Assembly (NCBI RefSeq): GCF_029227855.1
Contig: NZ_CP074356.1
Reading direction: 5' to 3' (one strand)
From: Escherichia coli
Lineage (GTDB): Bacteria; Pseudomonadota; Gammaproteobacteria; Enterobacterales; Enterobacteriaceae
DNA length: 64,000 nt
The translations under genes and the position numbers were made by a program. A model generated the notes under the pieces. That model saw only the letters and a program-made list of their open reading frames with translations, was not told the origin of the DNA and ran no database searches. Shown piece after piece: positions 5,911 through 61,128 of the stretch; position 1 is the stretch's first letter; every line of letters begins with the position of its first letter.

Positions 5911-7050
5911 ATGAGCGCGGGAAGCCCAAAATTCACCGTTCGCCGCATTGCGGCTTTGTCACTGGTTTCGCTATGGCTGGCAGGCTGTTCTGACACTTCA
6001 AATCCACCGGCCCCGGTCAGCTCCGTTAATGGCAATGCGCCTGCAAATACCAATTCTGGTATGTTGATTACGCCGCCGCCGAAAATGGGGACGACGTCTA
6101 CAGCTCAGCAACCGCAAATTCAGCCGGTACAGCAGCCACAAATTCAGGCAACTCAACAACCGCAAATCCAGCCGGTGCAGCCAGTAGCTCAGCAGCCGGT
6201 ACAGATGGAAAACGGACGCATCGTCTATAACCGTCAGTATGGGAACATTCCGAAAGGCAGTTATAGCGGCAGTACCTATACCGTGAAAAAAGGCGACACA
6301 CTTTTCTATATCGCCTGGATTACTGGCAACGATTTCCGTGACCTTGCTCAGCGCAACAATATTCAGGCACCATACGCGCTGAACGTTGGTCAGACCTTGC
6401 AGGTGGGTAATGCTTCCGGTACGCCAATCACTGGCGGAAATGCCATTACCCAGGCCGACGCAGCAGAGCAAGGAGTTGTGATCAAGCCTGCACAAAATTC
6501 CACCGTTGCTGTTGCGTCGCAACCGACAATTACGTATTCTGAGTCTTCGGGTGAACAGAGTGCTAACAAAATGTTGCCGAACAACAAGCCAACTGCGACC
6601 ACGGTCACAGCGCCTGTAACGGTACCAACAGCAAGCACAACCGAGCCGACTGTCAGCAGTACATCAACCAGTACGCCTATCTCCACCTGGCGCTGGCCGA
6701 CTGAGGGCAAAGTGATCGAAACCTTTGGCGCTTCTGAGGGGGGCAACAAGGGGATTGATATCGCAGGCAGCAAAGGACAGGCAATTATCGCGACCGCAGA
6801 TGGCCGCGTTGTTTATGCCGGTAACGCGCTGCGCGGCTACGGTAATCTGATTATCATCAAACATAATGATGATTACCTGAGTGCCTACGCCCATAACGAC
6901 ACAATGCTGGTCCGGGAACAACAAGAAGTGAAGGCGGGGCAAAAAATAGCAACCATGGGTAGCACCGGAACCAGTTCAACACGCTTGCATTTTGAAATTC
7001 GTTACAAGGGGAAATCCGTAAACCCGCTGCGTTATTTGCCGCAGCGATAA
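5911..7050 (+). CDS. nlpD: Murein hydrolase activator lipoprotein NlpD (LysM plus LytM/M23 domains)
   Basis: Track ORF 379 aa; lipobox LAGCS; Q/P-rich repeat; C-terminal M23-like domain; lies directly upstream of rpoS. Confidence 0.95.
6106..6203 (+). repeat. Imperfect tandem ~27-bp coding repeats inside nlpD, encoding QQPQIQPVQ-type units
   Basis: Repeated cagcaaccgcaaattcagccggtacag-like units visible in the sequence. Confidence 0.7.
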
Positions 7051-7112: not shown

Positions 7113-8105
7113 ATGAGTCAGAATACGCTGAAAGTTCATGATTTAAATGAAGATGCGGAATTTGATGAGAACGGAGTTGAGGTTTTTGACGAAAAGGCCT
7201 TAGTAGAAGAGGAACCCAGTGATAACGATTTGGCCGAAGAGGAACTGTTATCGCAGGGAGCCACACAGCGTGTGCTGGACGCGACTCAGCTTTACCTTGG
7301 TGAGATTGGTTATTCACCACTGTTAACGGCCGAAGAAGAAGTTTATTTTGCGCGTCGCGCACTGCGTGGAGATGTTGCCTCCCGCCGCCGGATGATCGAG
7401 AGTAACTTGCGTCTGGTGGTAAAAATTGCCCGCCGTTATGGCAATCGTGGTCTGGCGTTGCTGGACCTGATCGAAGAGGGCAACCTGGGGCTGATCCGCG
7501 CGGTAGAGAAGTTTGACCCGGAACGTGGTTTCCGCTTCTCAACATACGCAACCTGGTGGATTCGCCAGACGATCGAACGGGCGATTATGAACCAAACCCG
7601 TACTATTCGTTTGCCTATTCACATCGTAAAGGAGCTGAACGTTTACCTGCGAACCGCACGCGAGTTGTCCCATAAACTGGACCACGAACCAAGTGCGGAA
7701 GAGATCGCAGAGCAACTGGATAAGCCAGTTGATGACGTCAGCCGTATGCTTCGTCTTAACGAGCGCATTACCTCGGTAGACACCCCGCTGGGTGGTGATT
7801 CCGAAAAAGCGTTGCTGGACATCCTGGCCGATGAAAAAGAGAACGGTCCGGAAGATACCACGCAAGATGACGATATGAAGCAGAGCATCGTCAAATGGCT
7901 GTTCGAGCTGAACGCCAAACAGCGTGAAGTACTGGCACGTCGATTCGGTTTGCTGGGGTACGAAGCGGCAACACTGGAAGATGTAGGTCGTGAAATTGGC
8001 CTCACCCGTGAACGTGTTCGCCAGATTCAGGTTGAAGGCCTGCGCCGTTTGCGCGAAATCCTGCAAACGCAGGGGCTGAATATCGAAGCGCTGTTCCGCG
8101 AGTAA
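7113..8105 (+). CDS. rpoS: RNA polymerase sigma factor RpoS (sigma-38)
   Basis: Track ORF 7077..8105; start set to the ATG encoding [21 protein letters not shown], giving 330 aa; sigma-70 family regions present. Confidence 0.95.
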
Positions 8106-8122
8106 GTAAGCATCTGTCAGAA

Positions 8123-8152
8123 AGGCCAGTCTCAAGCGAGGCTGGCCTTTTT
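8123..8152 (+). terminator. Rho-independent terminator of rpoS
   Basis: Hairpin aggccag...ctggcct followed by TTTTT, 18 nt after the rpoS stop. Confidence 0.8.
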
Positions 8153-8154
8153 GT

Positions 8155-8865
8155 TGTGCACAGAAAACCCCCAGCTAGGCTGGGGGTTCCGGAAAGCTTT
8201 CAGCTTTAAGCCAGTTATTAAAACCCCTTTTGATTTGTTAAAACACCTTGCGGTCTGGCAACTGCAAGTGTCAAACAAGAAATCAAAAGGGGGTCCCAAT
8301 GGGGAACGAAAAGAGCTTAGCGCACACCCGATGGAACTGTAAATATCACATAGTTTTTGCGCCAAAATACCGAAGACAGGTGTTCTACAGAGAGAAGCGT
8401 AGAGCAATAGGCAGTATTTTGAGAAAGCTGTGTGAGTGGAAAAGTGTACGGATTCTGGAAGCTGAATGCTGTGCAGATCATATCCATATGCTTGTGGAGA
8501 TCCCGCCCAAAATGAGCGTATCCGGCTTTATGGGATATCTGAAAGGGAAAAGCAGTCTGATGCTTTACGAGCAGTTTGGTGATTTGAAATTCAAATACAG
8601 GAACAGGGAGTTCTGGTGCAGAGGGTACTACGTCGATACGGTGGGTAAGAACACGGCGAAGATACAGGATTACATAAAGCACCAGCTTGAAGAGGATAAA
8701 ATGGGAGAGCAGTTATCGATTCCCTATCCGGGCAGCCCGTTTACGGGCCGTAAGTAACGAAGTTGGATGCAAATGTCAGATCGTGTGCGCCTGTTAGGGC
8801 GCGGCTGGTAAGAGAGCCTTATAGGCGCATTTGAAAAACCTCCGGCTATGCCGGAGGATATTTAT
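8155..8865 (+). mobile_element. IS200-family insertion sequence (IS200/IS605 family); boundaries approximate
   Basis: Intact 152-aa Y1 HUH transposase with the HxH motif; hairpin at the left end (8166..8188); imperfect stem-loop around the RBS (8226..8290); hairpin at the right end (8839..8857); overall size about 0.7 kb as expected for IS200. Confidence 0.8.
8299..8757 (+). CDS. tnpA: IS200/IS605-family transposase TnpA (Y1 HUH)
   Basis: Track ORF 8248..8757 trimmed to the ATG preceded by an AAAAGGGGG Shine-Dalgarno; product 152 aa, MGNEKSLAHTRWNCKYHIVFAPKYRR...HIHMLVEIPPK, typical IS200 TnpA. Confidence 0.9.
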   Translation: MGNEKSLAHTRWNCKYHIVFAPKYRRQVFYREKRRAIGSILRKLCEWKSVRILEAECCADHIHMLVEIPPKMSVSGFMGYLKGKSSLMLYEQFGDLKFKYRNREFWCRGYYVDTVGKNTAKIQDYIKHQLEEDKMGEQLSIPYPGSPFTGRK

Positions 8866-8897
8866 TTCTTTTGGTTGGGGAGCCGGTGTGTTTGTGG

Positions 8898-8930
8898 GCT
8901 GGATAAGCCGCGATAGCGTCTCATCCGGCA
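8898..8930. repeat. REP-like palindromic element
   Basis: gctggataagccgcgatagcgtctcatccggca resembles REP units (ggataagc...catccggc inverted arms). Confidence 0.5.
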
Positions 8931-8939
8931 ATTTGCACC

Positions 8940-9347
8940 CTATGTGTTCATCATCTTGCGCACTAGCTGCATAAACAGCTCCTGCTCTTCTCCACTCAAA
9001 CGCCCCAAAAATTCCTCATCCACGCTGTCACCTATCGGTATCGCCGCAGCAAGTATCTTTTCGCCTTCGGCAGTCAGCCAGACAAAGCGTCGCCGCTTGT
9101 CAGCGGCGTCATGTTCACGTCTGACTAAGCCACGATTTTCCATTCTTGCCAACATTTCTGCCAGCGTTGCTTTGGTGCTGACGGCTGCTTCTATCAGTGC
9201 CACCTGTTCGATACCAGGCTTATCAGCAATGGCGCGCATCACCGCGTACTGTGGTTTGGTCAGGTCAGGTAACTCGTGCTGCCAGCGGGCCGTGTGTTGC
9301 TGAAAAAGCTGTCGTAACTGATGGAACGCTTTATTTCGTAACGCCAT
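8940..9347 (-). CDS. hosA: MarR/SlyA-family transcriptional regulator (HosA-like)
   Basis: Track ORF 135 aa with a winged-helix MarR fold signature; divergent from the UbiX/UbiD-type operon. Confidence 0.8.
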   Translation of the reverse strand: MALRNKAFHQLRQLFQQHTARWQHELPDLTKPQYAVMRAIADKPGIEQVALIEAAVSTKATLAEMLARMENRGLVRREHDAADKRRRFVWLTAEGEKILAAAIPIGDSVDEEFLGRLSGEEQELFMQLVRKMMNT

Positions 9348-9462
9348 GTAAACTCCGGGCTAATTCTCTGTCGCTATCATAGCGGTTTTTCAGTGACGAA
9401 GAAGATGTTGTTACTTTTCAATCCTTGCCGCTGTGGAAATGAAGGAGTATGTTAATAATAAC

Positions 9463-9476
9463 GTTCGTATACGAAC
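9463..9476. promoter_or_regulatory. Perfect 14-bp palindrome GTTCGTATACGAAC in the hosA/ecdB divergent region; candidate MarR-type operator
   Basis: Exact inverted repeat read in the sequence, 18 nt upstream of the ecdB ATG. Confidence 0.5.
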
Positions 9477-9493
9477 AATTAAGAGAGTAAGCA

Positions 9494-10087
9494 ATGAAAC
9501 TGATCGTCGGGATGACAGGGGCTACCGGTGCGCCTCTTGGTGTGGCATTACTGCAAGCGCTGCGGGAGATGCCGAATGTCGAGACTCATCTGGTGATGTC
9601 GAAGTGGGCGAAAACCACTATTGAACTGGAAACGCCTTACAGCGCTCGCGATGTTGCCGCCCTCGCAGACTTCAGCCATAACCCGGCGGATCAGGCGGCG
9701 ACCATCTCCTCAGGTTCCTTTCGTACCGACGGCATGATCGTTATTCCGTGCAGTATGAAAACGCTCGCCGGTATCCGTGCCGGTTACGCCGATGGCCTGG
9801 TAGGGCGCGCGGCGGACGTCGTGCTCAAAGAAGGCCGCAAACTAGTGCTGGTGCCGCGTGAAATGCCGCTTAGCACCATCCATCTCGAAAATATGCTCGC
9901 ACTTTCACGCATGGGCGTGGCGATGGTGCCGCCGATGCCTGCCTTTTATAACCATCCCGAAACGGTAGATGACATTGTCCACCACGTGGTAGCCCGCGTG
10001 CTGGATCAATTTGGCCTCGAACATCCCCACGCCAGGCGCTGGCAAGAATTGCCGCAGGTCCGGAATTTTTCTCAGGAGAATGAATAA
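9494..10087 (+). CDS. ecdB: UbiX-type flavin prenyltransferase, B subunit of a non-oxidative hydroxyarylic acid decarboxylase
   Basis: Track ORF 197 aa; N-terminal MKLIVGMTGATGAPLG flavoprotein motif (UbiX/Pad1 family). Confidence 0.85.
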   Translation: MKLIVGMTGATGAPLGVALLQALREMPNVETHLVMSKWAKTTIELETPYSARDVAALADFSHNPADQAATISSGSFRTDGMIVIPCSMKTLAGIRAGYADGLVGRAADVVLKEGRKLVLVPREMPLSTIHLENMLALSRMGVAMVPPMPAFYNHPETVDDIVHHVVARVLDQFGLEHPHARRWQELPQVRNFSQENE

Positions 10088-11514
10088 TGGCATTTGATAA
10101 TTTACGCAGCTTTTTACAGGCGCTTGATGACCACGGCCAGTTACTGAAAATCAGCGAAGAGGTGAACGCGGAACCGGATCTGGCAGCAGCAGCTAACGCC
10201 ACCGGGCGTATCGGCGACGGCGCGCCCGCGCTGTGGTTTGACAATATTCGCGGCTTTACCGATGCCCGTGTGGCGATGAATACCATCGGTTCCTGGCAGA
10301 ACCACGCGATTTCCCTCGGCCTGCCGCCAAACACCCCGGTCAAAAAGCAGATTGATGAGTTTATCCGCCGCTGGGATAACTTCCCCATTGCCCCGGAGCG
10401 CCGCGCCAATCCAGCCTGGGCGCAGAACACCGTCGATGGCGACGAGATCAACCTGTTCGATATCCTGCCGCTGTTTCGTTTAAACGATGGCGATGGCGGT
10501 TTCTATCTCGACAAAGCGTGCGTGGTTTCCCGCGATCCGCTCGACCCGGATAACTTCGGCAAGCAGAACGTCGGTATCTATCGTATGGAAGTGAAGGGCA
10601 AACGTAAGCTCGGCCTGCAACCGGTGCCGATGCACGATATCGCCCTGCATCTGCATAAAGCGGAAGAACGCGGTGAAGATCTGCCGATTGCCATCACCTT
10701 GGGTAACGATCCGATCATCACGCTGATGGGGGCCACGCCGCTGAAATATGATCAGTCCGAGTATGAAATGGCAGGCGCGCTGCGCGAAAGCCCGTACCCG
10801 ATCGCCACCGCCCCGCTGACCGGTTTTGATGTGCCGTGGGGCTCGGAAGTGATCCTCGAAGGGGTCATCGAAAGCCGTAAACGCGAAATCGAAGGGCCGT
10901 TCGGTGAGTTTACCGGGCACTACTCCGGCGGGCGTAACATGACCGTGGTGCGTATCGATAAAGTCTCTTACCGCACCAGGCCGATTTTCGAATCGCTGTA
11001 CCTCGGCATGCCGTGGACAGAAATCGACTACCTGATGGGGCCAGCCACCTGCGTGCCGCTGTATCAGCAACTGAAAGCCGAGTTCCCGGAAGTGCAGGCG
11101 GTGAACGCCATGTACACCCACGGCCTGCTGGCGATTATCTCCACCAAAAAACGCTACGGTGGCTTTGCCCGCGCGGTGGGCCTGCGTGCGATGACCACGC
11201 CACACGGTCTGGGCTACGTGAAGATGGTGATTATGGTCGATGAAGACGTTGATCCGTTCAACCTGCCGCAGGTGATGTGGGCGCTCTCTTCGAAAGTGAA
11301 CCCGGCAGGGGATTTGGTGCAGTTGCCGAATATGTCCGTGCTGGAACTCGACCCTGGCTCAAGCCCGGCCGGTATCACCGACAAGCTGATTATCGACGCC
11401 ACCACGCCTGTCGCCCCGGACAACCGTGGTCACTACAGCCAGCCGGTGGTGGATTTACCGGAAACCAAAGCCTGGGCTGAAAAACTGACCGCTATGCTGG
11501 CCGCACGTAAATAA
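10087..11514 (+). CDS. ecdC: UbiD-family decarboxylase, C subunit
   Basis: Track ORF 475 aa; UbiD family; start overlaps the ecdB stop (ATAATGG). Confidence 0.85.
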   Translation: MAFDNLRSFLQALDDHGQLLKISEEVNAEPDLAAAANATGRIGDGAPALWFDNIRGFTDARVAMNTIGSWQNHAISLGLPPNTPVKKQIDEFIRRWDNFPIAPERRANPAWAQNTVDGDEINLFDILPLFRLNDGDGGFYLDKACVVSRDPLDPDNFGKQNVGIYRMEVKGKRKLGLQPVPMHDIALHLHKAEERGEDLPIAITLGNDPIITLMGATPLKYDQSEYEMAGALRESPYPIATAPLTGFDVPWGSEVILEGVIESRKREIEGPFGEFTGHYSGGRNMTVVRIDKVSYRTRPIFESLYLGMPWTEIDYLMGPATCVPLYQQLKAEFPEVQAVNAMYTHGLLAIISTKKRYGGFARAVGLRAMTTPHGLGYVKMVIMVDEDVDPFNLPQVMWALSSKVNPAGDLVQLPNMSVLELDPGSSPAGITDKLIIDATTPVAPDNRGHYSQPVVDLPETKAWAEKLTAMLAARK

Positions 11515-11524
11515 GGAGAACAAG

Positions 11525-11761
11525 ATGATTTGTCCACGTTGTGCCGATGAACAGATTGAAGTGATGGCGAAATCGCCGGTAAAAGATGTCTGGACGGTCT
11601 ACCAGTGCCAGCATTGCCTCTATACCTGGCGCGATACCGAACCGCTACGCCGCACCAGCCGCGAACATTACCCGGAAGCGTTTCGTATGACGCAGAAAGA
11701 CATTGATGACGCGCCAATGGTGCCGAGCATTCCGCCGCTGCTGGCGGAAGGTAAGCGCTAA
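11525..11761 (+). CDS. ecdD: Small zinc-ribbon subunit (D) of the decarboxylase
   Basis: Track ORF 78 aa with CPRC...CQHC; third gene of the three-gene operon. Confidence 0.75.
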   Translation: MICPRCADEQIEVMAKSPVKDVWTVYQCQHCLYTWRDTEPLRRTSREHYPEAFRMTQKDIDDAPMVPSIPPLLAEGKR

Positions 11762-11766
11762 ATAAA

Positions 11767-11792
11767 AGGTCCGATGCCCATCGGACCTTTTT
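11767..11792. terminator. Bidirectional rho-independent terminator between convergent ecdD and ygbN
   Basis: aggtccgatg-ccc-atcggacct hairpin flanked by an A-run and a T-run. Confidence 0.75.
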
Positions 11793-11799
11793 ATTAAGG

Positions 11800-13164
11800 T
11801 CAAATTACCGCCCATACGCACCAGGTAATTAAGAATCCGGTAAAACCGAGAATGGTCGTTAACACTGTCCAGGTTTTCAGACCGTCTGCTACCGACAACC
11901 CCAGATATTTGGTCACAATCCAGAACCCTGAGTCATTAATATGTGACGCGCCAAGCCCACCAAAGCAGGCTGCCAGCGTCACCAATACGCACTGAATCGG
12001 ATTCAATCCCATCACCGCTTCTGAGAGTAACCCGCCGGTTGTCAGGATTGCTACGGTTGCTGACCCCTGCGATGCACGCAGCGCCAGTGAAATAATAAAT
12101 GCGGCTGGTAACAGAGGCAGGTCAATCATTTGTAGCATGTTGGCAAGGGCTTTGCCGACGCCCGATTCCACCAGCACTTTGCCAAATACCCCTCCAGCAC
12201 CAGTAACCAAAATCACTACCGCCGCGGTGGGAAGGGCTGAGCCCATAATGTCGCTGGTGTGTTGTAAGCTCCAGCCGCGACGTAAAGCCAATAACCAGAA
12301 TGCCAGCACCAGCGCAATCATTAGAGCTACCATTGGTGAGCCGATCAGCTGTAGCGTACCAAGCAGGGGATGCGAAGGCGGCATCAGTGTTGCGGAAACC
12401 GTACCCGCCATGATAATCGCGATAGGAATAACAATTAGCGAGGTGACCAGCGCGACGCCCGGTGGATTTATTTTATCGCTTAATTTTGTCGCGCCTTCCT
12501 CACTGGCCGGAGCCAGTTGCATCTGTTCCAGTACTTCCACCGACATCGCATATTGGCACTTATTGATTATTTTCGCTGCAAAGTAGCCAACAATCCCTAC
12601 GGGAATAGAAATCGCAATACCGATGATGGTTAGCCAGCCGATGTCTGCGTGGAGTAACCCCGCTGCGGCGACAGGGCCTGGATGCGGCGGTACCGCCACA
12701 TGAACAGTTAGCATGATTCCAGCGACAGGCAGGCCAAATTTGAGTGGCGATATTTTGGCAACCTTGGCAAAACCGTAAATGATTGGCGCAAGAATAATAA
12801 AGCCGACATCAAAGAAGACGGGAATACCGAGGAAGAACGCTGCCAGAGTCAGCGCAGCGATAGTTCGTTTGTCACCTAACTTGCGACTGAAATAATTAGC
12901 CAGTGACTCTGCACCACCAGAGTGTTCGATCATACGCCCCAGCATAGCGCCCAGACCAATAATAATAGTGACGGAACCAAGCACACCGCCCATCCCGGCG
13001 ATCATCACTTTACCCACTTCGCCCGCCGGTATACCCGCCGCAAGTGCGACTAACAGGCTGACGAGGAGCAGAGCAACGAATGGTTGTACCTTTGCCTTGA
13101 TGACCAGCAGCAACAGCATGATTACGCCAGTTAACGCAATGCATAACAATGTAATTGTGGACAT
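11800..13164 (-). CDS. ygbN: GntP-family permease YgbN
   Basis: Track ORF 454 aa, polytopic membrane protein of the GntP family. Confidence 0.9.
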   Translation of the reverse strand: MSTITLLCIALTGVIMLLLLVIKAKVQPFVALLLVSLLVALAAGIPAGEVGKVMIAGMGGVLGSVTIIIGLGAMLGRMIEHSGGAESLANYFSRKLGDKRTIAALTLAAFFLGIPVFFDVGFIILAPIIYGFAKVAKISPLKFGLPVAGIMLTVHVAVPPHPGPVAAAGLLHADIGWLTIIGIAISIPVGIVGYFAAKIINKCQYAMSVEVLEQMQLAPASEEGATKLSDKINPPGVALVTSLIVIPIAIIMAGTVSATLMPPSHPLLGTLQLIGSPMVALMIALVLAFWLLALRRGWSLQHTSDIMGSALPTAAVVILVTGAGGVFGKVLVESGVGKALANMLQMIDLPLLPAAFIISLALRASQGSATVAILTTGGLLSEAVMGLNPIQCVLVTLAACFGGLGASHINDSGFWIVTKYLGLSVADGLKTWTVLTTILGFTGFLITWCVWAVI

Positions 13165-13252
13165 GGGAAACCCTGTCTGAAAGTTATAGTTAACCTACCC
13201 CATCCGTAGATGGGGGGATGTATGGGTACGTTGTAATTAGGGATTTAACGAA

Positions 13253-14029
13253 TTAGCGCCAGGCGTCAAACCAGCCAAGCCCTTCTTCGGTGAGGCCACG
13301 AGGTTTATATTCACAACCGATCCAGCCCTGATATCCCACCTCATCGAACAGGCGGAACAGCCACGGATAGTTGATTTCTCCATCGTCCGGTTCATGTCGA
13401 TCAGGTAGTCCGGCAATTTGTACGTGCGCATATTTCCCGGCGTAGTCGCGGATTAAATGCGTCAGGTTGCCATCTACTTTTTGCGCATGAAAAGTATCTA
13501 GTTGAATAAACACGTTATCTCGCGCAACTTCTTCAACAATAGCCAGTGCCTGATACTGGCTGGAGAAGAGATAATGAGGCTTAACGCCGGGGCTGAGTGC
13601 TTCAACTAATATTCGCTTGCCGTGTGGCGCAAAGCGGTCGGCAGCGTAGCGGAGATTATCGATAAATACTGCCCTGTACCGTTCAGCATCTTCGCCAGCG
13701 GGCACGACGCCTGCCATCACATGGACTTGTTCACAATTGAGCGCCAATGCATATTCCAGTGCCAGGTCGATGTCTGCGTGTGCTTCGTGCTCACGTCCGG
13801 GAAGGGCGGATAATCCCCATTCCCCCGCATTAATATCTCCGGGAGCGGTATTGAACAGCGCCAGTGTCAGATGGTTTTGCTCCAGTTGCTTTTGGATTTG
13901 CAGGGTGGAGTAGTCATAGGGAAACAGAAATTCCACAGCATCGAACCCGGCTTTTCGCGCTGCGGCGAAGCGTTCAATAAAAGGCACTTCGGTGAACATC
14001 ATGGATAAATTAGCTGCAAAACGAGGCAT
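13253..14029 (-). CDS. ygbM: Hydroxypyruvate-isomerase-like TIM-barrel protein YgbM (2-oxo-tetronate isomerase, OtnI)
   Basis: Track ORF 258 aa; xylose-isomerase-like fold; conserved ygb cluster order. Confidence 0.85.
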
Positions 14030-14033
14030 TGCA

Positions 14034-14672
14034 TTAACTCCTTAATTCCGCAATTTCACCTGCGGTCAGATAACGGATCGGGCGGTCACCGAGAATAAAA
14101 ATCAGCTTTGCCGTTTCCTCCAGCTCTTCCATATTGTTGGCGGCTTCTTGCAGGCTTTCACCGCAAACCACTGGGCCATGATTTGCCAGTAAAAAAGCCT
14201 GATTGTCTGCTGCCAGTTCCGCCAGATCCTGTGCGATGCGTTTATCGCCCGGTCGGTAATAAGGCACCAGCGGGACATTTCCCATCCGCATCACCACGTA
14301 TGGTGTGAACGGACGAATAACGTTGCTGCTGTCCAGCCCTTGCAGGCAGGAAAGCGCCGTCGACCATGTGCTGTGCAAATGCACCACCGCTTTACAGCGC
14401 GGATTGTTGCGATACAGCGCCAGATGAAAGAGCACCTCTTTCGAGGGTTTGTCACCACTTAACCATTCGCCATCCGCGGCGACTTTGGAAAGCCGCTGCG
14501 GATCGAGATTGCCCAGGCATGAACCTGTCGGTGTCGCCAGTAAATTCCCGTCAGGTAAAAGCAGCGACAAATTGCCAGCCGAACCGGTTGCATAGCCGCG
14601 CTGAAAGAATGAACTGGCAATCCGCGTCATCTCCTCTCGCAAAGACTGCTCTACTTTTGCGAAATCGCTCAT
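14034..14672 (-). CDS. ygbL: Class II aldolase/adducin-family protein YgbL (3-oxo-tetronate 4-phosphate decarboxylase, OtnC)
   Basis: Track ORF 212 aa; class II aldolase family; 4-nt overlap with ygbK. Confidence 0.85.
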
Positions 14673-15931
14673 GATAAAAACTCTCTTTGGGCTCGTGAAA
14701 AAAAGGCTTCATCACCGAAGTTGCCAGATTTAAGGGCGAGTGAGACAGGTTTATCCAGTGCGTTTACCCACGGCACGCCGGGAGAAATGGTTGGGCCAAT
14801 ATGAAACCCTTTTATTCCCAGGCTCTGTGTGACTACGCCGGAGGTCTCACCGCCTGCGACAATAAAGCGTGTCACGCCTTCCGCTGCTAACCGCGCCGCT
14901 AGTTGAGAAAACAGTGTTTCTACTGCCTGACTGGCTTTATGTGCACCGTATTGCTGTTGAATTGCTGCCAATGCGTCAGTGCTGGCAGTGGCAAAAACCA
15001 GTGGAGCAAGTACACTTTCCTGGCCCAGAACCCACTCTGCCAGTTCGTGTGCATAAGCGGCCAGAGTTTCAATTGAGAGGCAGCGTGCCACATCAACTTC
15101 ACGGGCTGGTGCAATTTGACGGTAATGTGCTACCTGGCAGTTGGTCATTTGAGAGCATGAACCGGAGAGCACTACGCCGCGCCCAGCGAGCGGATGCCCT
15201 GCTTTGCGAGCCTGGTTACCGTTTTCTTGCGCCCACTGCCGGGCAAGGCCAATCGCCAGACCAGAACCGCCCGTTACCAGTGGGGTATCGCGCAAGGCTT
15301 CTCCCTGAATTTCCAGATGGTGTTCGGTCAGCGCATCAAGCACCGCGTAGCGGTAGCCCTCTTGCTGTAAGCGAGCCAGCTCTTGACGAACGGCATCCAC
15401 ACCTTGTTCGAAAACATGTGCCGAAACGACGCCGCAGCGCCCTGTGGATTGCGCTTCAACCAGACGGGGAAGATAGCTGTCGGTCATGGGATTTACCGGG
15501 TGATGGCGCATCCCGGATTCGGCCAGCAGTTGATTCATTACGAACAAATACCCCTGATAAACCGTACGTCCGTTGACCGGCAGGGCCGGAGAGAAGACCG
15601 TAAACGGCGTGTCGAGAGCATCCATTAATGCATCGGTAACCGGGCCGATATTACCTTTCGCCGAACTGTCGAAAGTAGAGCAGTATTTGAAATAGATCTG
15701 TTTGCAACCTTGCTGTTGCAACCAGCTCAGTGCCGCCAGCGATTGCTGTGTGGCTTCAACCACCGGACAGGAACGCGTTTTCAGGCTGATCACCAGTGCG
15801 TCGATTGCTTCCGGCATTTTACCTGTTGGAACACCGTTAATTTGTACCGTTGGTAGACCGTTTTCCACCAGAAAACTGGCGATATCCGTCGCGCCGGTAA
15901 AATCATCGGCGATAACGCCAATCTTGATCAT
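14669..15931 (-). CDS. ygbK: Four-carbon acid sugar kinase YgbK (3-oxo-tetronate kinase, OtnK)
   Basis: Track ORF 420 aa; N-terminal MIKIGVIADDFTGATD motif. Confidence 0.85.
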   Translation of the reverse strand: MIKIGVIADDFTGATDIASFLVENGLPTVQINGVPTGKMPEAIDALVISLKTRSCPVVEATQQSLAALSWLQQQGCKQIYFKYCSTFDSSAKGNIGPVTDALMDALDTPFTVFSPALPVNGRTVYQGYLFVMNQLLAESGMRHHPVNPMTDSYLPRLVEAQSTGRCGVVSAHVFEQGVDAVRQELARLQQEGYRYAVLDALTEHHLEIQGEALRDTPLVTGGSGLAIGLARQWAQENGNQARKAGHPLAGRGVVLSGSCSQMTNCQVAHYRQIAPAREVDVARCLSIETLAAYAHELAEWVLGQESVLAPLVFATASTDALAAIQQQYGAHKASQAVETLFSQLAARLAAEGVTRFIVAGGETSGVVTQSLGIKGFHIGPTISPGVPWVNALDKPVSLALKSGNFGDEAFFSRAQREFLS

Positions 15932-16836
15932 GATTTCGCTCCCGGTAGAGTGATGCCAGAGAAAATCTTGATAACTGCGCTATCGTCTTCTTTCCCGTAA
16001 CCCGCGTTACTGGCGCTGGTGAACATATTCAATGCTGTTGAGGCCAATGGCAGCGGGAAGTGCAGGGCTTTGGCTGTATCGGCAACCAGACCAAGATCCT
16101 TAACAAAAATATCGACGGCTGAATGCGGGGTGTAATCGCCATCCACCACATGACGCATCCGGTTTTCGAACATCCAGGAATTTCCGGCGGCATTGGTCAC
16201 GACGTCATACATCACATCCAGCGGGATCCCCGCACGGGCTGCAAGTGCCATCGCTTCGGCTCCGGCAGCAATATGTACGCCCGCTAACAACTGGTGAATA
16301 ATTTTTACGGTCGAACCTAGTCCCGGTTCTGCACCTATGCGATAAACTTTTCCGGCAACGGCTTCCAGCACGGGTGCCAGTCGTTCAAAGGCAATATCGC
16401 TACCGGAGGCCATGACAGTCATTTCACCGTTAGCGGCTTTTACTGCACCACCAGAAACTGGCGCATCCAGCATTTCCAGATCGAATCCAGCCAGAGCGGT
16501 AGCAATTTCTTGCGCATCAGCACTAGCGATAGTGGAAGAAACCATTACTGCCGTACCGGGTTTCAGATGTTGTGCAACGCCTGTTTCACCAAACAGCACC
16601 TGTTTAACCTGGGCCGCATTGACCACCAGCACCAGCAGAGCGTCCAGTTTTTCGGCAAACGTCGCGGCGTTATCAGAAACCCCGCAAGCACCTGCCTCTT
16701 TCAACGTAGCGCAGGCATTGCTGTTCAGGTCTGCGCCCCAGGTAGAAAGACCTGCGCGGACACATGACAGTGCTGCTCCCATTCCCATTGACCCTAAGCC
16801 AACGATACCGACATGAAACTCAGATCCCGTTTTCAT
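15928..16836 (-). CDS. ygbJ: NAD-dependent 3-hydroxyisobutyrate-dehydrogenase-family enzyme YgbJ (L-threonate dehydrogenase, LtnD)
   Basis: Track ORF 302 aa; Rossmann motif GIVGLGSMG. Confidence 0.85.
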   Translation of the reverse strand: MKTGSEFHVGIVGLGSMGMGAALSCVRAGLSTWGADLNSNACATLKEAGACGVSDNAATFAEKLDALLVLVVNAAQVKQVLFGETGVAQHLKPGTAVMVSSTIASADAQEIATALAGFDLEMLDAPVSGGAVKAANGEMTVMASGSDIAFERLAPVLEAVAGKVYRIGAEPGLGSTVKIIHQLLAGVHIAAGAEAMALAARAGIPLDVMYDVVTNAAGNSWMFENRMRHVVDGDYTPHSAVDIFVKDLGLVADTAKALHFPLPLASTALNMFTSASNAGYGKEDDSAVIKIFSGITLPGAKS

Positions 16837-17031
16837 CTGCTCTCCTTGTTAATTTAAGTGATATTTTGTTTGATATTGTGAATATAGGCGCTGGAAGATA
16901 ACGATATGGTGAGCTGATTCACAAAAATTAACATTGTGTGTTATTTTATGTGAACTAAGCGTTAGTTGCGCCGCGCACGTTTCGCAGGCAAATAGCGTAG
17001 AATGTCAGCAGGACAAAGGAAGGAGCAAAAG

Positions 17032-17799
17032 TTGATACCCGTAGAGCGTCGCCAAATCATCCTTGAGATGGTAGCTGAAAAAGGCATTGTCAGTATTGCT
17101 GAACTAACGGACAGAATGAATGTGTCACATATGACCATTCGTCGGGATTTACAAAAACTGGAGCAGCAGGGAGCCGTTGTGCTGGTGTCCGGAGGCGTCC
17201 AGTCTCCGGGACGCGTGGCGCATGAACCTTCTCATCAGGTAAAAACTGCGCTGGCAATGACGCAAAAAGCGGCTATTGGCAAGCTGGCGGCAAGTCTTGT
17301 TCAGCCGGGAAGTTGTATCTATCTGGATGCGGGAACGACCACGCTAGCGATAGCACAGCATCTGATTCACATGGAGTCACTGACTGTGGTCACAAACGAT
17401 TTCGTTATTGCGGACTACTTGCTCGACAACAGTAATTGCACAATTATTCACACTGGCGGTGCAGTGTGTCGGGAAAACCGTTCCTGTGTCGGGGAAGCCG
17501 CTGCGACCATGCTGCGCAGCCTGATGATTGATCAGGCTTTTATTTCTGCATCGTCATGGAGTGTGCGGGGGATTTCTACGCCAGCGGAAGATAAAGTCAC
17601 GGTGAAACGGGCGATTGCCAGTGCCAGCCGCCAGCGAGTTTTGGTCTGTGATGCGACGAAATATGGTCAGGTGGCGACATGGCTGGCGTTACCATTAAGC
17701 GAGTTTGATCAGATTATTACAGACGACGGTTTGCCGGAGAGTGCCAGTCGCGCGCTGGCGAAGCAGGATCTCTCTTTGCTGGTAGCGAAAAATGAATAA
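17032..17799 (+). CDS. ygbI: DeoR-family transcriptional regulator YgbI
   Basis: Track ORF 17002..17799; I prefer the in-frame TTG at 17032, which has an AAGGAAGGAG Shine-Dalgarno 6 nt upstream and gives 255 aa; the ATG at 17002 has no Shine-Dalgarno and is an alternative. Confidence 0.8.
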   Translation: MIPVERRQIILEMVAEKGIVSIAELTDRMNVSHMTIRRDLQKLEQQGAVVLVSGGVQSPGRVAHEPSHQVKTALAMTQKAAIGKLAASLVQPGSCIYLDAGTTTLAIAQHLIHMESLTVVTNDFVIADYLLDNSNCTIIHTGGAVCRENRSCVGEAAATMLRSLMIDQAFISASSWSVRGISTPAEDKVTVKRAIASASRQRVLVCDATKYGQVATWLALPLSEFDQIITDDGLPESASRALAKQDLSLLVAKNE

Positions 17800-17849
17800 T
17801 GGCCTGCAATAACACCGGGTTACTCATGCTTCACAGAAGAAGCATGAGA

Positions 17850-18506
17850 CTACTTTATTTTATAAAATGACAGCCGCCCGCTTTTCGGCGATCCGGTATC
17901 AATATAAATCTGGTTTGCGAATGTCTGAATGTTATCAAACATCATATGTCCAAATATAAAATAATCAGCGCCGTTTATTTGTTGTAACTCGCCATTAAGC
18001 GATTTCTGCACACGATCAACAGGCCAGAGTAGTTCTCTCTCCGCTATTTCTTTGCCAAAGAGATATTCATTCCCCGGATAATCTGCATGTGCGATGACAT
18101 ATTTTATTATGTCGTTAGTGATTTCAATAATATGTGGAAGGCGATGAAATTTCAGCAACAGATTTATTGCTTCTTGTTGTTCCGTCTCATTTAATTCAAA
18201 GAACCAGTCGCCGCCGCTGGCAAGCCACATATTTCCATCGCCAGTTTCGAATGCATCAAGCGCCATCGCTTCATGGTTGCCTTTAACCGATGTAAACCAG
18301 GGCTGGTTTAACAGGCGTAGTACGTTAAGACTCTCCGGCCCACGATCAATATTATCGCCGACAGAAATAAGTAAGTCGGTTTCAGGGAAAAAAGAGAGTT
18401 GATGTAAGCGGGATTGTAATAATTGATAGTCACCATGAATATCACCAACGGCCCATATATAACGATAGTGATGGGCATTAATTTTTTGATAGCGTGTAGA
18501 TGGCAT
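17850..18506 (-). CDS. pphB: Serine/threonine protein phosphatase 2
   Basis: Track ORF 218 aa; calcineurin-like phosphoesterase motifs GDIHG, GDNIDRG and GNHE. Confidence 0.9.
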   Translation of the reverse strand: MPSTRYQKINAHHYRYIWAVGDIHGDYQLLQSRLHQLSFFPETDLLISVGDNIDRGPESLNVLRLLNQPWFTSVKGNHEAMALDAFETGDGNMWLASGGDWFFELNETEQQEAINLLLKFHRLPHIIEITNDIIKYVIAHADYPGNEYLFGKEIAERELLWPVDRVQKSLNGELQQINGADYFIFGHMMFDNIQTFANQIYIDTGSPKSGRLSFYKIK

Positions 18507-18611
18507 GGTTTTACCCTGTAAAATAAGATTTCCTATTATACAGGGTGTTTTTATTTGATTCGTCAGTTGTCGTTAATATTCCCGATAGCAAAAGACTATC
18601 GGGAATTGTTA

Positions 18612-21173
18612 TTACACCAGACTCTTCAAGCGATAAATCCACTCCAGCGCCTGACGCGGAGTCAGTGAATCCGGGTCGAGGTTTTCCAGTGCCTCGACCG
18701 CAGGCGAAGTTTCTTCTGGTACGGACAGCAAAGACATCTGCGTGCCATCTACCTGCGTCGCGGCGGCATTCGGCGAAATGCTCTCCAGCTCACGCAGTTT
18801 CTGCCGCGCGCGTTTGATCACCTCTTTTGGCACGCCCGCAAGGGCTGCAACCGCCAGGCCGTAGCTTTTGCTCGCCGCGCCATCCTGCACGCTGTGCATA
18901 AAGGCAATGGTGTCGCCGTGCTCCAGTGCATCGAGATGCACGTTGGCGACGCCTTCCATTTTCTCCGGTAACTGGGTCAGCTCGAAATAGTGGGTGGCAA
19001 ACAACGTCAACGCTTTAATCTTATTCGCCAGATTTTCCGCGCACGCCCACGCCAGCGACAGACCATCGTAAGTGGACGTCCCGCGCCCAATCTCATCCAT
19101 CAGTACCAGACTGTACTCGGTGGCGTTATGTAAAATATTGGCGGTTTCGGTCATTTCCACCATAAAGGTTGAACGCCCGGATGCCAGATCATCCGCTGCC
19201 CCTACGCGGGTAAAGATGCGATCGATAGGTCCAATCTCGACTTTTTGTGCCGGTACATAGCTGCCGATGTAGGCCATCAGCGCAATCAGTGCGGTCTGGC
19301 GCATATAGGTACTTTTACCGCCCATATTCGGACCGGTAATGATCAACATGCGACGCTGCGGCGACAGGTTCAGCGGGTTGGCGATAAACGGCTCATTCAG
19401 CACCTGTTCAACCACCGGATGGCGGCCTTCGGTGATGCGAATACCCGGTTTATCAATAAAGGTCGGGCAGGTGTAGTTCAGGGTATAGGCCCGTTCCGCC
19501 AGGTTCACCAGCACGTCGAGTTCCGCCAGTGCGCTCGCGCTCTGTTGCAACGCTTCCAGATGCGGCAACAGCAGGTCGAACAGCTCTTCATAAAGCTGTT
19601 TTTCCAGTGCCAGTGCTTTGCCTTTTGAAGTGAGAACTTTGTCTTCGTACTCTTTTAGCTCTGGAATAATGTAGCGCTCGGCGTTTTTCAGCGTCTGGCG
19701 ACGCATGTAATTGATGGGTGCCAGATGGCTTTGTCCACGGCTGATCTGAATGTAATAACCATGAACCGCGTTAAAGCCGACTTTCAGGGTGTCCAGGCCA
19801 GTACGTTCACGCTCGCGGACTTCCAGACGCTCCAGATAATCGGTCGCGCCGTCAGCCAGCGCGCGCCACTCATCCAGCTCTTCGTTATAGCCCGGTGCGA
19901 TAACACCACCGTCGCGTACCAGCACCGGCGGTGTGTCGATGATTGCTCGCTCCAGCAGATCGCGCAGCTCGGCAAACTCGCCCATTTTTTCACGCAGCGC
20001 CTGTACCGGAGCGCTATCGACATTTTCTAACTGCGCGCGCAGCTCCGGCAGTTGCTGGAAAGCGTGACGCATACGGGCCAGATCGCGTGGGCGAGCAGTT
20101 CGTAAAGCCAGACGCGCCAGAATACGTTCCAGGTCGCCGACCTGACGCAGTACCGGCTGCAGCTCGGCGGTGAAATCCTGCAATGCGCCAATAGTTTGCT
20201 GGCGCTCAAGCAAGACGCGGGTATCGCGCACTGGCATATGCAGCCAGCGTTTCAGCATACGGCTGCCCATCGGCGTGACGGTGCAGTCGAGCACAGAAGC
20301 CAGCGTATTTTCCGCACCACCCGCCAGGTTCTGGGTGATTTCCAGATTACGACGCGTCGCGGCATCCATAATGATGCTGTCCTGCTCACGTTCCATGGTG
20401 ATGGAACGAATATGCGGCAGAGTCGTACGTTGGGTATCTTTCGCATACTGCAACAGACAACCGGCAGCACAAAGTCCGCGCGGCGCGTTCTCGACGCCAA
20501 AACCGACCAGATCGCGGGTGCCAAATTGCAGATTCAACTGCTGGCGCGCGGTGTCGATTTCAAACTCCCACAGCGGGCGACGGCGCAGGCCGCGACGGCC
20601 TTCAATTAACGACATTTCAGCAAAATCTTCTGCATACAGCAGTTCCGCAGGATTAGTGCGTTGCAGTTCTGCCGCCATCGTTTCCCGGTCAGCCGGTTCG
20701 CTCAGGCGAAAACGACCGGAGCTGATATCCAGCGTCGCGTAGCCGAAACCTTTGCTGTCCTGCCAGATAGCCGCCAGCAGGTTGTCCTGACGCTCCTGCA
20801 ACAGGGCTTCATCGCTGATGGTGCCTGGCGTAACGATACGCACAACTTTGCGCTCAACCGGACCTTTGCTGGTCGCCGGATCGCCAATTTGTTCGCAGAT
20901 GGCAACGGACTCGCCCTGATTCACCAGTTTGGCGAGGTAGTTTTCCACCGCATGGTAGGGAATCCCCGCCATCGGGATCGGCTCTCCCGCCGAAGCACCG
21001 CGTTTGGTCAGTGAAATATCCAGCAGTTGCGATGCGCGTTTTGCGTCGTCATAAAACAGTTCATAAAAATCACCCATCCGGTAAAACAGCAGGATCTCGG
21101 GATGCTGGGCTTTCAGCTTGAGATATTGCTGCATCATGGGCGTATGGGCATCGAAATTTTCTATTGCACTCAT
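18612..21173 (-). CDS. mutS: DNA mismatch repair protein MutS
   Basis: Track ORF 853 aa; Walker [10 protein letters not shown]; MutS family. Confidence 0.97.
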
Positions 21174-21842: not shown

Positions 21843-22271
21843 TTACGCTTTGGTGGCAATCAGGATGGCTGATGCTTTGATCAATGCAATAACGCGCGAG
21901 CCAGTGGTGAGTTTCATTTCATCCTGACTTTCATTTGTTACCACTGCCACAATTTCAAAACCCGCATCCGTTTTGATATGGACAGTGGCGTTCACTGCGC
22001 CTTCGGTGATTGTCGACACGCTGCCAGCAAACTGGTTGCGAGCAGAGAATTTCAGTCCACAGTCTTCCGTTGCCAGCGTTACCCACGGGGCTTTAATCAG
22101 GGCAATCGCTTCTTTCCCTTTCGCCAGACCCAGAGCCTGCTGGCTGCTGTGAGTCACAATTGCCACCAGCTTTGCACCACCTGCCAGCGTCAGTTCTACT
22201 TCGTCATTCACCGCGCCCATTGCTACTGCGCTAACTGTTCCGGTTAATTGATTTCTTGCTGAAACTGCCAT
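21843..22271 (-). CDS. Tandem TOBE (Mop-like) domain protein, putative molybdate/oxyanion-binding molbindin
   Basis: Track ORF 21843..22310; start set to the ATG preceded by an AAAGGAGG Shine-Dalgarno (142 aa); two internal repeats beginning SARNQLTGTVSAV and SARNQFAGSVSTI. Confidence 0.7.
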   Translation of the reverse strand: MAVSARNQLTGTVSAVAMGAVNDEVELTLAGGAKLVAIVTHSSQQALGLAKGKEAIALIKAPWVTLATEDCGLKFSARNQFAGSVSTITEGAVNATVHIKTDAGFEIVAVVTNESQDEMKLTTGSRVIALIKASAILIATKA

Positions 22272-60840: not shown

Positions 60841-60933
60841 GGTGAGGTGGCCGAGAGGCTGAAGGCGCTCCCCTGCTAAGGGAGTATGCGGTCAAAAGCT
60901 GCATCCGGGGTTCGAATCCCCGCCTCACCGCCA
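60841..60933 (+). tRNA. serV: tRNA-Ser (anticodon GCU)
   Basis: 93-nt type II tRNA, ggtgaggtggccgagaggc...ccgcctcaccgcca, with anticodon loop ctGCTaa and long variable arm. Confidence 0.95.
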
Positions 60934-60936
60934 TTT

Positions 60937-61013
60937 GCATCCGTAGCTCAGCTGGATAGAGTACTCGGCTACGAACCGAGCGGTCGGAGGTTCGAATCCT
61001 CCCGGATGCACCA
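60937..61013 (+). tRNA. argV: tRNA-Arg (anticodon ACG), copy 1
   Basis: 77-nt cloverleaf gcatccgtagctcagctggatagag...cctcccggatgcacca, anticodon loop ctACGaa; 3 nt after serV. Confidence 0.93.
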
Positions 61014-61128
61014 TATTCTACGTACTTTCAGCGATGAAGGTATGGAAGAGGTGGCGGTAATAACCGCAGGCACCAGGGAGGATAACGTTGCTTTAGCAAC
61101 GGCCCGAAGGGCGAGCCGCAAGGCGAGT

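Follow-up and report, generated by a model that had tools for sequence, protein, structure and literature searches.

The hosA-ecdBCD decarboxylase block beside rpoS in Escherichia coli: an ancestral enterobacterial segment, an IS200C copy in the rpoS terminator and a possible IS200 scar in the K-12 allele

What is the gene block next to rpoS that this E. coli strain carries and K-12 lacks, and is it a late acquisition or an old part of the chromosome that K-12 has lost? The question arises in a 64-kb stretch of E. coli DNA (64,000 nucleotides of contig NZ_CP074356.1; henceforth the window), for which an original prediction, made from the letters alone, had placed at 8898-11792 a MarR-type, hosA-like regulator divergent from a three-gene decarboxylase operon, in the company of the K-12-type ygbN-ygbI cluster, an IS200 and a REP-like element. 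Open reading frames, profile scores and folds recover every one of these elements at or adjoining those coordinates (Table 1). The start is the foot of the REP-like hairpin, and the end is that of the terminator common to ecdD and ygbN. The open reading frames put hosA on the minus strand and the three genes diverging from it on the plus strand; the latter are tightly packed, with the ecdC start overlapping the ecdB stop and ecdD beginning 10 nt past the ecdC stop. The hairpin at 8898-8929, which we take to resemble the REP consensus, is also found by alignment in IS200-free strains. The K-12-type cluster from ygbN to ygbI, followed by pphB and mutS, occupies 11800-21173, and at the other border the RpoS protein is identical to that of EDL933. 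With high confidence, the block is the known E. coli HosA repressor gene and EcdBCD (UbiX/UbiD-type) decarboxylase operon, located between rpoS and mutS, and it is intact and ordinary in this strain.

Table 1. Features of the interval from rpoS to ygbN, numbered by position in the window
Feature	Position	Strand	Description
rpoS	7113..8105	+	330 aa, Glu33; left border gene of the variable interval; open reading frame and rpoS annotation in the near-identical strain JNEC-KY178
rpoS intrinsic terminator	8121..8152	+	Hairpin and five T, intact; fold -31.6 kcal/mol, z = -6.7
IS200C	8154..8866	+	tnpA 8299-8757; left-end hairpin 8166-8188; right-end hairpin 8839-8857; STnc490 8166-8289
REP-like hairpin	8898..8929	-	Just 3' of the hosA end; minus-strand fold -20.3 kcal/mol, z = -2.3
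hosA	8940..9347	-	MarR-family repressor sensing 4-hydroxybenzoate; match to solved HosA 8AGA
Putative sigma-70 promoter of ecdBCD	9425..9453	+	TTGCCG, 17 nt, TATGTT; read from sequence
HosA operator	9463..9476		Perfect 14-bp palindrome GTTCGTATACGAAC, 18 nt upstream of the ecdB ATG
ecdB (VdcB/Pad1)	9494..10087	+	197 aa; UbiX-type flavin prenyltransferase, prFMN-making; NCBIfam VdcB and PDB 1SBZ match
ecdC (VdcC)	10087..11514	+	475 aa; UbiD-family prFMN-dependent decarboxylase, catalytic subunit; NCBIfam VdcC and 7AE4_A match
ecdD (VdcD)	11525..11761	+	78 aa; zinc-ribbon activator subunit; NCBIfam VdcD and 7AE4_a match
Bidirectional terminator hairpin common to ecdD and ygbN	11764..11792		Fold -17.6 kcal/mol, z = -5.5
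ygbN	11800..13164	-	GntP-family transporter, first gene of the K-12-type ygbN-ygbI cluster; NCBIfam PRK09821, 824 bits; JNEC-KY178 annotation

Both the hosA-ecdBCD system and the arrangement in which it occurs here are already known. The same genes, in the same order and orientation and with the same operator, constitute HosA-EcdBCD (Pad1-YclC-YclD) of E. coli O157:H7 and EPEC; we verified its presence in both, in agreement with the description from pathogenic E. coli mentioned in the prediction. In O157:H7, pphB-mutS comes immediately after ecdD (“pattern I”), whereas here ecdD is followed by ygbN-ygbI, an arrangement catalogued as the EPEC-type “pattern IV” (PMC4209514); an IS200C between rpoS and hosA is the further difference from the O157:H7 and EPEC segments. 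The arrangement that had been called a composite version is thus real but not special to this strain: of 5426 complete E. coli genomes, 1601 have the ecdD-ygbN junction, so that it is the commonest ecd-positive form (77% of ecd-positive genomes).

The regulator is identical to the solved HosA (8AGA) at 133 of 135 positions (E = 2e-84). It also matches the SlyA and MarR equivalogs weakly, and because these scores lie well below their cut-offs, a SlyA identity is ruled out in favor of HosA. The operator in the hosA-ecdB intergenic region equals the transcription-factor binding site carried by published HosA probes (PMC6261655), and of 80 loci examined in other species, 77 keep its GTTCG-N4-CGAAC pattern ahead of the operon. 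Ahead of it, we read a putative sigma-70 promoter for ecdBCD at a position that fits the operator site reported just downstream of the transcription start, in a preprint that also summarizes the repression and induction of the operon by the HosA system (bioRxiv 10.1101/2024.04.24.590444). This candidate matches the consensus at 8 of 12 positions, too few for the threshold of the promoter scan, which therefore left it out.

All three enzyme subunits pass the curated VdcB, VdcC and VdcD cut-offs, as expected of the flavin prenyltransferase, UbiD-family decarboxylase and small zinc-ribbon subunit that had been predicted, and the suggested comparison with characterized 4-hydroxybenzoate and vanillate decarboxylases returns matches to solved structures (1SBZ, 7AE4). 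EcdB scores 310.8 bits against NCBIfam VdcB (cut-off 290) and 256.6 against the UbiX subfamily (cut-off 188), and shares 194 of 197 residues with 1SBZ, the solved O157:H7 Pad1, all three differences falling in the C-terminal tail (residues 179-189), so that the fold and FMN site of that structure carry over. EcdC scores 788.9 bits against NCBIfam VdcC (cut-off 650; E = 1e-237) and, over residues 3-471, matches the solved 4-hydroxybenzoate/vanillate decarboxylase VdcC/ShdC (7AE4_A) at E = 9e-160. Its motifs are NVGIYR (161-166), MHD (182-184) and EGPFGE (269-274), which supply the context of R166, E269 and E274; by way of R173, E277 and E282 of Fdc1, we take these three residues to be the Glu-Arg-Glu (ERE) motif, and the motifs likewise provide the Asn and His surroundings for binding metal and prFMN. 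EcdD scores 121.2 bits against NCBIfam VdcD (cut-off 30), matches ShdD (7AE4_a) at E = 3e-11, and has Cys3, Cys6, Cys28 and Cys31, which form two CXXC knuckles, at the positions of the four cysteines that bind zinc in ShVdcD (PMC8379154). For VdcCD, the same paper describes how the ERE motif and the zinc ribbon function, that VdcD is required, and that the enzyme acts on 4-hydroxybenzoate and vanillate. Relative to EDL933, the proteins encoded here differ by three residues in HosA, three in EcdB, one in EcdC and none in EcdD, at 95-98% nucleotide identity, and ecdC and ecdD differ by 55 and 12 nucleotides, respectively. With so few amino-acid against so many nucleotide differences, the ecd genes are under strong purifying selection. 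Two further strains with IS200 have an ecdC annotated as frameshifted, which implies that the operon is dispensable in some lineages.

HosA and EcdBCD very probably constitute a substrate-inducible, non-oxidative and reversible hydroxyarylic-acid decarboxylase system. Going by the identity of the operator and by repression described in the literature, a HosA dimer on GTTCGTATACGAAC would block transcription of both ecdBCD and hosA. Binding of 4-hydroxybenzoate would free HosA from DNA, as described for a 98.5% identical protein; the HosA of UMN026 is released by this ligand with a KD of ~4.7 uM (PMC6261655). EcdB would prenylate reduced FMN to prFMN, with dimethylallyl phosphate as the prenyl donor, as its identity to 1SBZ and its place in the UbiX family suggest. 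By the precedent of the solved VdcCD complex and of near-identical Klebsiella and Enterobacter enzymes, the UbiD-type EcdC, with its E-R-E catalytic motif, would bind prFMN in a complex with the zinc-ribbon EcdD as its required allosteric activator. Together, EcdC and EcdD would convert 4-hydroxybenzoate to phenol and CO2 and vanillate to guaiacol and CO2, best without oxygen; we infer this substrate range of the E. coli EcdCD from its orthologues.

One possibility is that the chemistry is as described and the physiological role is another. The substrate could be a different phenolic acid (protocatechuate, gallate or a breakdown product of plants or parabens), the reaction could run in the direction of phenol carboxylation, or EcdB could be of use mainly as a supplier of prFMN to other UbiD enzymes. 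VdcCD enzymes are indeed reversible and take several hydroxybenzoates (PMC8379154), EcdB and KpdB boost the unrelated AroY protocatechuate decarboxylase, and about a dozen Enterobacterales loci have hosA-ecdCD without ecdB, which implies that the B subunit is exchangeable. However, the HosA regulator is tuned to 4-hydroxybenzoate, lysates with Klebsiella kpdBCD are reported to yield phenol from that substrate (Lupa 2005, as cited in PMC6424909), and AroY-type protocatechuate decarboxylases match EcdC only weakly (E = 1e-24 to 2e-27). We regard such alternative roles as unlikely and favor the decarboxylation of 4-hydroxybenzoate. By analogy with the orthologues, the operon would let gut Enterobacteriaceae make phenol from 4-hydroxybenzoate, which arises from the breakdown of plant phenolics and parabens. 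This bears on host phenol exposure and on the uses of HosA and VdcCD in biosensors and biocatalysis.

The only uncommon feature of the locus is the position of IS200C. We set its ends by aligning five other copies and the empty sites of PI6 and EDL933, which gives an element of 711 bp with a 2-nt boundary ambiguity and no terminal inverted repeats. Its tnpA specifies a single Y1 (HUH) transposase (147.7 bits against NCBIfam transpos_IS200, cut-off 55), and Rfam STnc490, the sRNA element of the tnpA 5'UTR, matches at 146 bits. In its length, single transposase, subterminal hairpins and sRNA element, it is of the same type as IS200 of Salmonella and E. coli and IS1541 of Yersinia, both of the IS200/IS605 family, with nothing unusual but its position. 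The element went into the T-tract of the rpoS terminator, whose GGCC-TTTTT-CTTT tract is kept in 51 other Enterobacteriaceae loci. IS200C occupies the site in 18 of 5426 complete E. coli genomes; since these are only 18 of the 2086 block-positive ones, it is a later arrival. In all likelihood, it is a secondary, lineage-specific insertion that left rpoS, the terminator hairpin, hosA and ecdBCD intact. An insertion inside the terminator T-tract, 48 nt after the rpoS stop and convergent with hosA, by an element that carries an Hfq-binding 5'UTR sRNA element (PMC5435999), might be expected to change how the rpoS 3' end forms or how much RpoS is present, or to send antisense transcription into hosA, making the locus functionally unlike an ordinary pattern IV. 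Such an effect is nevertheless improbable: the terminator hairpin and its five T are intact, the hairpins at both ends of the element are strong, the right one being followed by a T-run, and all other IS200C copies examined adjoin terminators of intact genes (fadR, kdsA, rnb, ydgA). The placement of IS200C after terminators looks like a target preference and not a selected regulatory change.

As to origin, the hosA-ecdBCD block is an ancestral Enterobacteriaceae segment beside rpoS, and K-12 is a deletion derivative, because, of 80 species-representative loci, 51 have the block adjoining rpoS; these 51 come from about 20 Enterobacteriaceae genera and show the synteny rpoS-hosA-ecdBCD-(pphB)-mutS. 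The genera with the block between rpoS and mutS include Citrobacter, Klebsiella, Enterobacter, Kluyvera, Kosakonia, Salmonella and Atlantibacter. The original prediction had spoken of an island, a label that is misleading in view of these 51 syntenic loci, although the gene block it referred to is real. A horizontally acquired, pathogen-associated island that marks virulent lineages would be in keeping with the absence of the block from K-12, its first description in O157:H7 and EPEC, and the mobile element adjoining it in the window; a preprint proposes acquisition from Shigella into pathogenic E. coli (bioRxiv 10.1101/2024.04.24.590444), and the G+C content of the block (0.57-0.585 vs ~0.52 in the flanks, 5-6 points higher) could, taken alone, suggest a foreign origin. 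Against this stand not only the syntenic loci but also the presence of the block in 38% of complete E. coli genomes (2086 of 5426) from all kinds of hosts, the rarity of IS200C at the site, and the deletion junction of K-12. Base composition points neither way, since the G+C of the genes is raised while they are subject to strong purifying selection and keep their synteny from genus to genus. The block is bounded by the rpoS terminator on one side and the ecdD stop codon on the other, and it has no integrase, tRNA or direct repeats at its borders. Acquisition as an island is thus very improbable; the comparative data correct the recent claim of horizontal transfer from Shigella and mark the block as a conserved enterobacterial trait, not a virulence island.

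Alignment with K-12, which had been proposed as a check, confirms that the block is absent there: the rpoS-ygbN spacer is only 93 bp, and homology resumes at ~11760-11761, within the ecdD stop codon. This K-12-type allele, in which ygbN directly follows rpoS, is found in 1942 of 5426 genomes, and the K-12 junction reads GGCTGGCC-TTTTCT-GTGCACA-ATAAAAGG. Within it, TGTGCACA is identical to the initial 8 nt of IS200C at its left end and lies at the same spot as IS200C here. The window has a single copy of this octamer, at the IS200C left end; neither the ancestral spacer of 51 other Enterobacteriaceae nor any IS-free E. coli allele that we examined contains it. The shared octamer suggests that the K-12-type allele probably arose by a deletion begun inside an IS200C in the rpoS terminator, rather than by simple loss of the block. 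If so, K-12, the most-studied E. coli strain, lost its hydroxybenzoate decarboxylase when an illegitimate, IS200-associated deletion with 1 nt of microhomology removed ~3.6 kb, and the rare rpoS-IS200C-hosA arrangement seen here is a living example of the precursor state. If confirmed, the scar would provide a concrete mechanism for a classic polymorphism used in E. coli lineage typing. We found no mention of an IS200-deletion origin of the K-12 allele in the literature searched, with the older mutS-rpoS literature lying outside that search, and the scar may be a new result.

The EcdBCD family also goes under the names VdcBCD, KpdBCD, BsdBCD and ShdBCD. Its members in Sedimentibacter hydroxybenzoicus, Bacillus subtilis and Streptomyces (VdcBCD/ShdBCD/BsdBCD; VdcCD, 7AE4) share with the E. 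coli operon the three-subunit B-C-D organization, in which the C subunit is UbiD-type and bears the ERE motif and the D subunit is a zinc ribbon with four cysteines. They differ in that the regulator here is the MarR-type HosA, and EcdD is more diverged, with a longer linker ahead of the proline-rich tail. Much closer are KpdBCD of Klebsiella pneumoniae and EcdBCD of Enterobacter cloacae, orthologues at the same chromosomal locus; across Klebsiella and Enterobacter species, EcdC is 96-97%, EcdB 86-89% and EcdD 86-92% identical. In many species of these two genera, rpoS and hosA are separated by an additional ~2.5 kb, and a weaker, second operator-like site is present.

UbiX and UbiD of ubiquinone biosynthesis belong to the same two superfamilies as EcdB and EcdC and share their prFMN cofactor logic, whereas UbiD, unlike EcdC, works without a D subunit on a prenylated substrate and is not under HosA control. 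That the ecd genes are spare copies of the ubiquinone-pathway UbiX and UbiD (3-octaprenyl-4-hydroxybenzoate carboxy-lyase), as in older annotations, is hardly credible, for although both proteins fall within these superfamilies and EcdC matches E. coli UbiD structures at E = 4e-46, EcdC reaches 171.5 bits on the UbiD equivalog, below its cut-off of 788, vs 788.9 on VdcC, and the operon encodes a VdcD subunit that UbiD does not use and is under a 4-hydroxybenzoate-sensing repressor. This settles the annotation of the genes as HosA and EcdBCD, not SlyA, Pad1 or UbiD. EcdB may well complement ubiX, as both make prFMN.

The locus was mapped from the ORF listing and the annotation of the near-identical strain JNEC-KY178, the closest genome (one mismatch to the window over 14.4 kb), and reads nlpD-rpoS ... 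mutS along the E. coli chromosome. The span 8898-11792 runs exactly from the REP-like hairpin through the end of the terminator common to ecdD and ygbN, whose hairpin was missed by the terminator scan and is shown by folding. The original prediction was correct in what it observed here and essentially correct in its interpretation: a 711-bp IS200 copy, IS200C, lies beside the block formed by hosA and ecdBCD, with the REP-like hairpin between IS200C and hosA, and the block co-resides with the ygbN-ygbI cluster, which follows ecdD and the terminator. JNEC-KY178 has an IS1A inserted directly 5' of the rpoS start codon (11231-12007 of its locus, L001); this is absent from the window, which hence derives from a sister isolate with an undisrupted rpoS leader. 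Downstream of alaS and csrA, the window also has five tRNA genes, four with identical scores, in a serV-argVYZQ-type cluster that is ordinary for the region.

Features of the rpoS-mutS interval and its surroundings, in window coordinates
Feature	Position	Strand	Remarks
nlpD	5911-7050		ORF listing and JNEC-KY178 annotation
rpoS	7113-8105		ORF listing and JNEC-KY178 annotation
IS200C	~8154-8866		tnpA 8299-8757
REP-like hairpin	8898-8929
hosA	8940-9347	minus
Putative ecdB promoter	9425-9453		8/12 match
Palindrome (HosA site)	9463-9476
ecdB	9494-10087
ecdC	10087-11514
ecdD	11525-11761
Terminator common to ecdD/ygbN	11764-11792
ygbN	11800-13164	minus	followed by ygbM, otnC, otnK, ltnD, ygbI
pphB	17850-18506	minus
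mutS	18612-21173	minus
TOBE-domain gene	21843-22271	minus	between ygbA and fhlA
tRNA cluster	60841-61603		five genes

Among 5426 complete E. coli genomes, the hosA-ecdBCD block is found in 2086, the ecdD-ygbN junction of the composite arrangement in 1601 and the K-12-type rpoS-ygbN junction in 1942. As predicted, K-12 lacks the block, the rpoS terminator being joined to sequence at the ecdD stop codon. In O157:H7, ecdD is joined straight to pphB, and B2 strains have two unrelated genes where the block would be. The four states correspond to patterns I-IV as published for the o454-nlpD region, the composite being the EPEC-type pattern IV (PMC4209514). Hence, the composite version proposed for this strain is real but ordinary. 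On the other side of mutS, the window has a gene for a TOBE-domain (molybdopterin-binding-like) protein, which is missing in EDL933 and has a counterpart in 1889 of the 5426 genomes. A long fhlA-mutS amplicon was reported from B2 'pattern III' strains only (Ewers 2014); the window pairs this long form with pattern IV, so that the interval is mosaic to the left as well as to the right of mutS.

EcdC, used as query against a single genome for each bacterial species, recovered 80 loci with 88-99% protein identity, 51 of which encode RpoS within the 6-kb flank, usually in the order nlpD-rpoS-hosA-ecdBCD-(pphB)-mutS. Genera with the rpoS-linked block include Citrobacter, Pseudocitrobacter, Klebsiella, Enterobacter, Kluyvera, Leclercia, Lelliottia, Kosakonia, Atlantibacter, Franconibacter, Mangrovibacter, Phytobacter and Salmonella. 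This synteny argues that the block is ancestral at the rpoS locus and that K-12 represents the derived state. The description of the block as an island, a pathogen-specific acquisition, thus has to be abandoned; its sole island-like trait is a G+C content above that of its flanks. The synteny across genera likewise contradicts a claim of horizontal transfer made in a preprint (bioRxiv 10.1101/2024.04.24.590444). In two subspecies of Salmonella enterica, arizonae and diarizonae, as well as in Phytobacter (L029, L032, L034, L057, L059), hosA-ecdBCD is inverted relative to rpoS such that ecdD abuts the rpoS 3' end, a flip within the same interval.

The uncommon feature of the locus is IS200C in the rpoS terminator: only 18 of the 5426 genomes have the element after rpoS, with slightly differing junctions. 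Alignment with IS-free alleles, five other IS200C copies and a K-12-type allele with a separate IS200C sets its ends, giving an element of 711 bp from TTGTGCACAG to GGATATTTA(TT), with strong hairpins at the left and right ends on folding and an Rfam STnc490 match in the tnpA 5'UTR. The insertion point is the T-tract of the rpoS terminator, of which the hairpin and five T are left. All other copies examined (L006-L010) lie directly 3' of the terminator hairpin and T-run of fadR, kdsA, rnb and ydgA, and at all of these genes, as at rpoS (window 8121-8163), IS200C has the orientation of the upstream gene; a further copy, in LR-58-1 (L013), follows an ecdD/ygbN-type terminator. These placements suggest that insertion is terminator-targeted. 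We saw no sign of IS200C disturbing rpoS, hosA or ecdBCD.

The possibly new point is an apparent remnant of this element at the K-12 junction, which reads GGCTGGCC-TTTTCT-GTGCACA-ATAAAAGGTCCG (L004 430-460, compared with window 8140-8165). Its left part is the rpoS terminator and its right part starts at about 11760-11761 of the window, inside the ecdD stop codon; (T)GTGCACA, which separates the two, is the start of IS200C. This apparent scar, found in 1942 of the 5426 genomes, occupies the position that IS200C has in the window and in MB53 (junction TTTTTC-TTGTGCACAG). The junction holds TGTGCACA, identical to the start of the IS200C left end, and the only occurrence of this string in the 64-kb window is at that end. 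On the basis of this 8-nt match, spotted post hoc, the simplest reading is a deletion: the K-12-type allele probably descends from a pattern IV allele that carried IS200. The event would have removed about 3.6 kb, hosA-ecdBCD included; its left breakpoint would lie immediately 5' of the hairpin at the IS left end and its right breakpoint immediately 5' of the hairpin of the ecdD/ygbN terminator, the microhomology amounting to 1 nt. Precise transposase-mediated excision is an unlikely source of the junction: elements of the IS200/IS605 family excise seamlessly, so that nothing of the left end would remain. The full IS200C of the K-12-type strain LR-58-1 was inserted independently, behind the second terminator, and the scar is still present upstream of it. 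GTGCACA as an ancestral spacer is ruled out: GTGCAC occurs within 110 nt after rpoS in none of 51 other Enterobacteriaceae loci, all of which read GGCC-TTTTT-CTTT there, and it is also missing after rpoS in the B2, O157 and PI6 alleles. An origin elsewhere in the deleted 2.9 kb is ruled out too, as GTGCAC occurs in window 8000-12000 solely at the IS200C left end. A literature search on IS200, rpoS and terminators, with older literature outside its range, returned nothing on this locus; the gene content, structure, regulator, ligand, operator and population polymorphism of the system are already known.

The three ORFs expected to encode UbiX/UbiD-type decarboxylase subunits all exceed the curated NCBIfam cut-offs for non-oxidative hydroxyarylic acid decarboxylase (B, 310.8 bits against 290; C, 788.9 against 650; D, 121.2 against 30), and EcdC falls below the equivalog for UbiD proper (171.5 bits against 788). 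EcdB is identical to O157:H7 Pad1 (1SBZ) at 194 of 197 positions, EcdC aligns end to end with Sedimentibacter VdcC/ShdC (7AE4; E = 9e-160) and EcdD matches ShdD in comparison with solved structures. The EcdC motifs NVGIYR and EGPFGE contain the family's Glu-Arg-Glu catalytic triad, and Cys3, Cys6, Cys28 and Cys31 of EcdD are the same four cysteines that ligate zinc in ShVdcD (PMC8379154). VdcD is an obligatory allosteric activator bound to the VdcC hexamer, and the oxygen-sensitive complex acts on 4-hydroxybenzoate and vanillate (PMC8379154). The conservation of EcdC is unusually high: across the 80 loci it is comparable to that of MutS and far above that of NlpD (70-85%) or HosA (50-80%), the E. 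coli protein having 96-97% amino-acid identity to that of Klebsiella, Enterobacter or Salmonella, and 88% to that of a Vibrio salinus locus. Strong purifying selection is seen between the window and EDL933 (55 nucleotide and one amino-acid differences in ecdC; 12 and none in ecdD). The ecdC gene is annotated as frameshifted in MB53 (L011) and BEC1-S17-ESBL-09 (L014), both with IS200C after rpoS; unlike theirs, that of the window is intact (475 aa). In about a dozen Enterobacterales species (among them Superficieibacter, Pluralibacter, Cedecea, Chimaeribacter, Siccibacter and some Rahnella, Erwinia and Mangrovibacter; L051, L063, L064, L073, L075, L078, L083, L084, L086, L089, L093, L094), ecdB is missing and hosA lies directly upstream of ecdC-ecdD; housekeeping UbiX is presumably their source of prFMN.

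The regulator, predicted to be of the MarR/SlyA type and hosA-like, is HosA (133 of 135 residues identical to 8AGA), with SlyA and MarR only distant relatives. The perfect 14-bp palindrome GTTCGTATACGAAC, 18 nt 5' of the ecdB start, was picked out by visual inspection and then verified with a string search, the inverted-repeat tool not having listed it as such; it is the HosA binding site of published probes, whose flanks also match, and 4-hydroxybenzoate, with a KD of ~4.7 uM, frees HosA from DNA (PMC6261655). A preprint reviewing previous studies describes HosA as a repressor of both the decarboxylase operon and its own gene, with 4-hydroxybenzoate as inducer and a site just 3' of the transcription start (bioRxiv 10.1101/2024.04.24.590444). 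As comparative support for the operator, 77 of the 80 loci from other species keep GTTCG-N4-CGAAC ~30 nt 5' of the first decarboxylase gene. A sigma-70 promoter scan of 8050-11900 gave no match of at least 9/12, so that the putative weak ecdB promoter (TTGCCG, 17 nt, TATGTT) is an 8/12 reading of the sequence; its position would fit the reported operator geometry. A second, degenerate HosA-like site, GATCGTRTACGAAC, which has no counterpart in the E. coli window, occurs in many genera ~57 bp 5' of the conserved palindrome (L017-L019, L026, L028, L030 and others).
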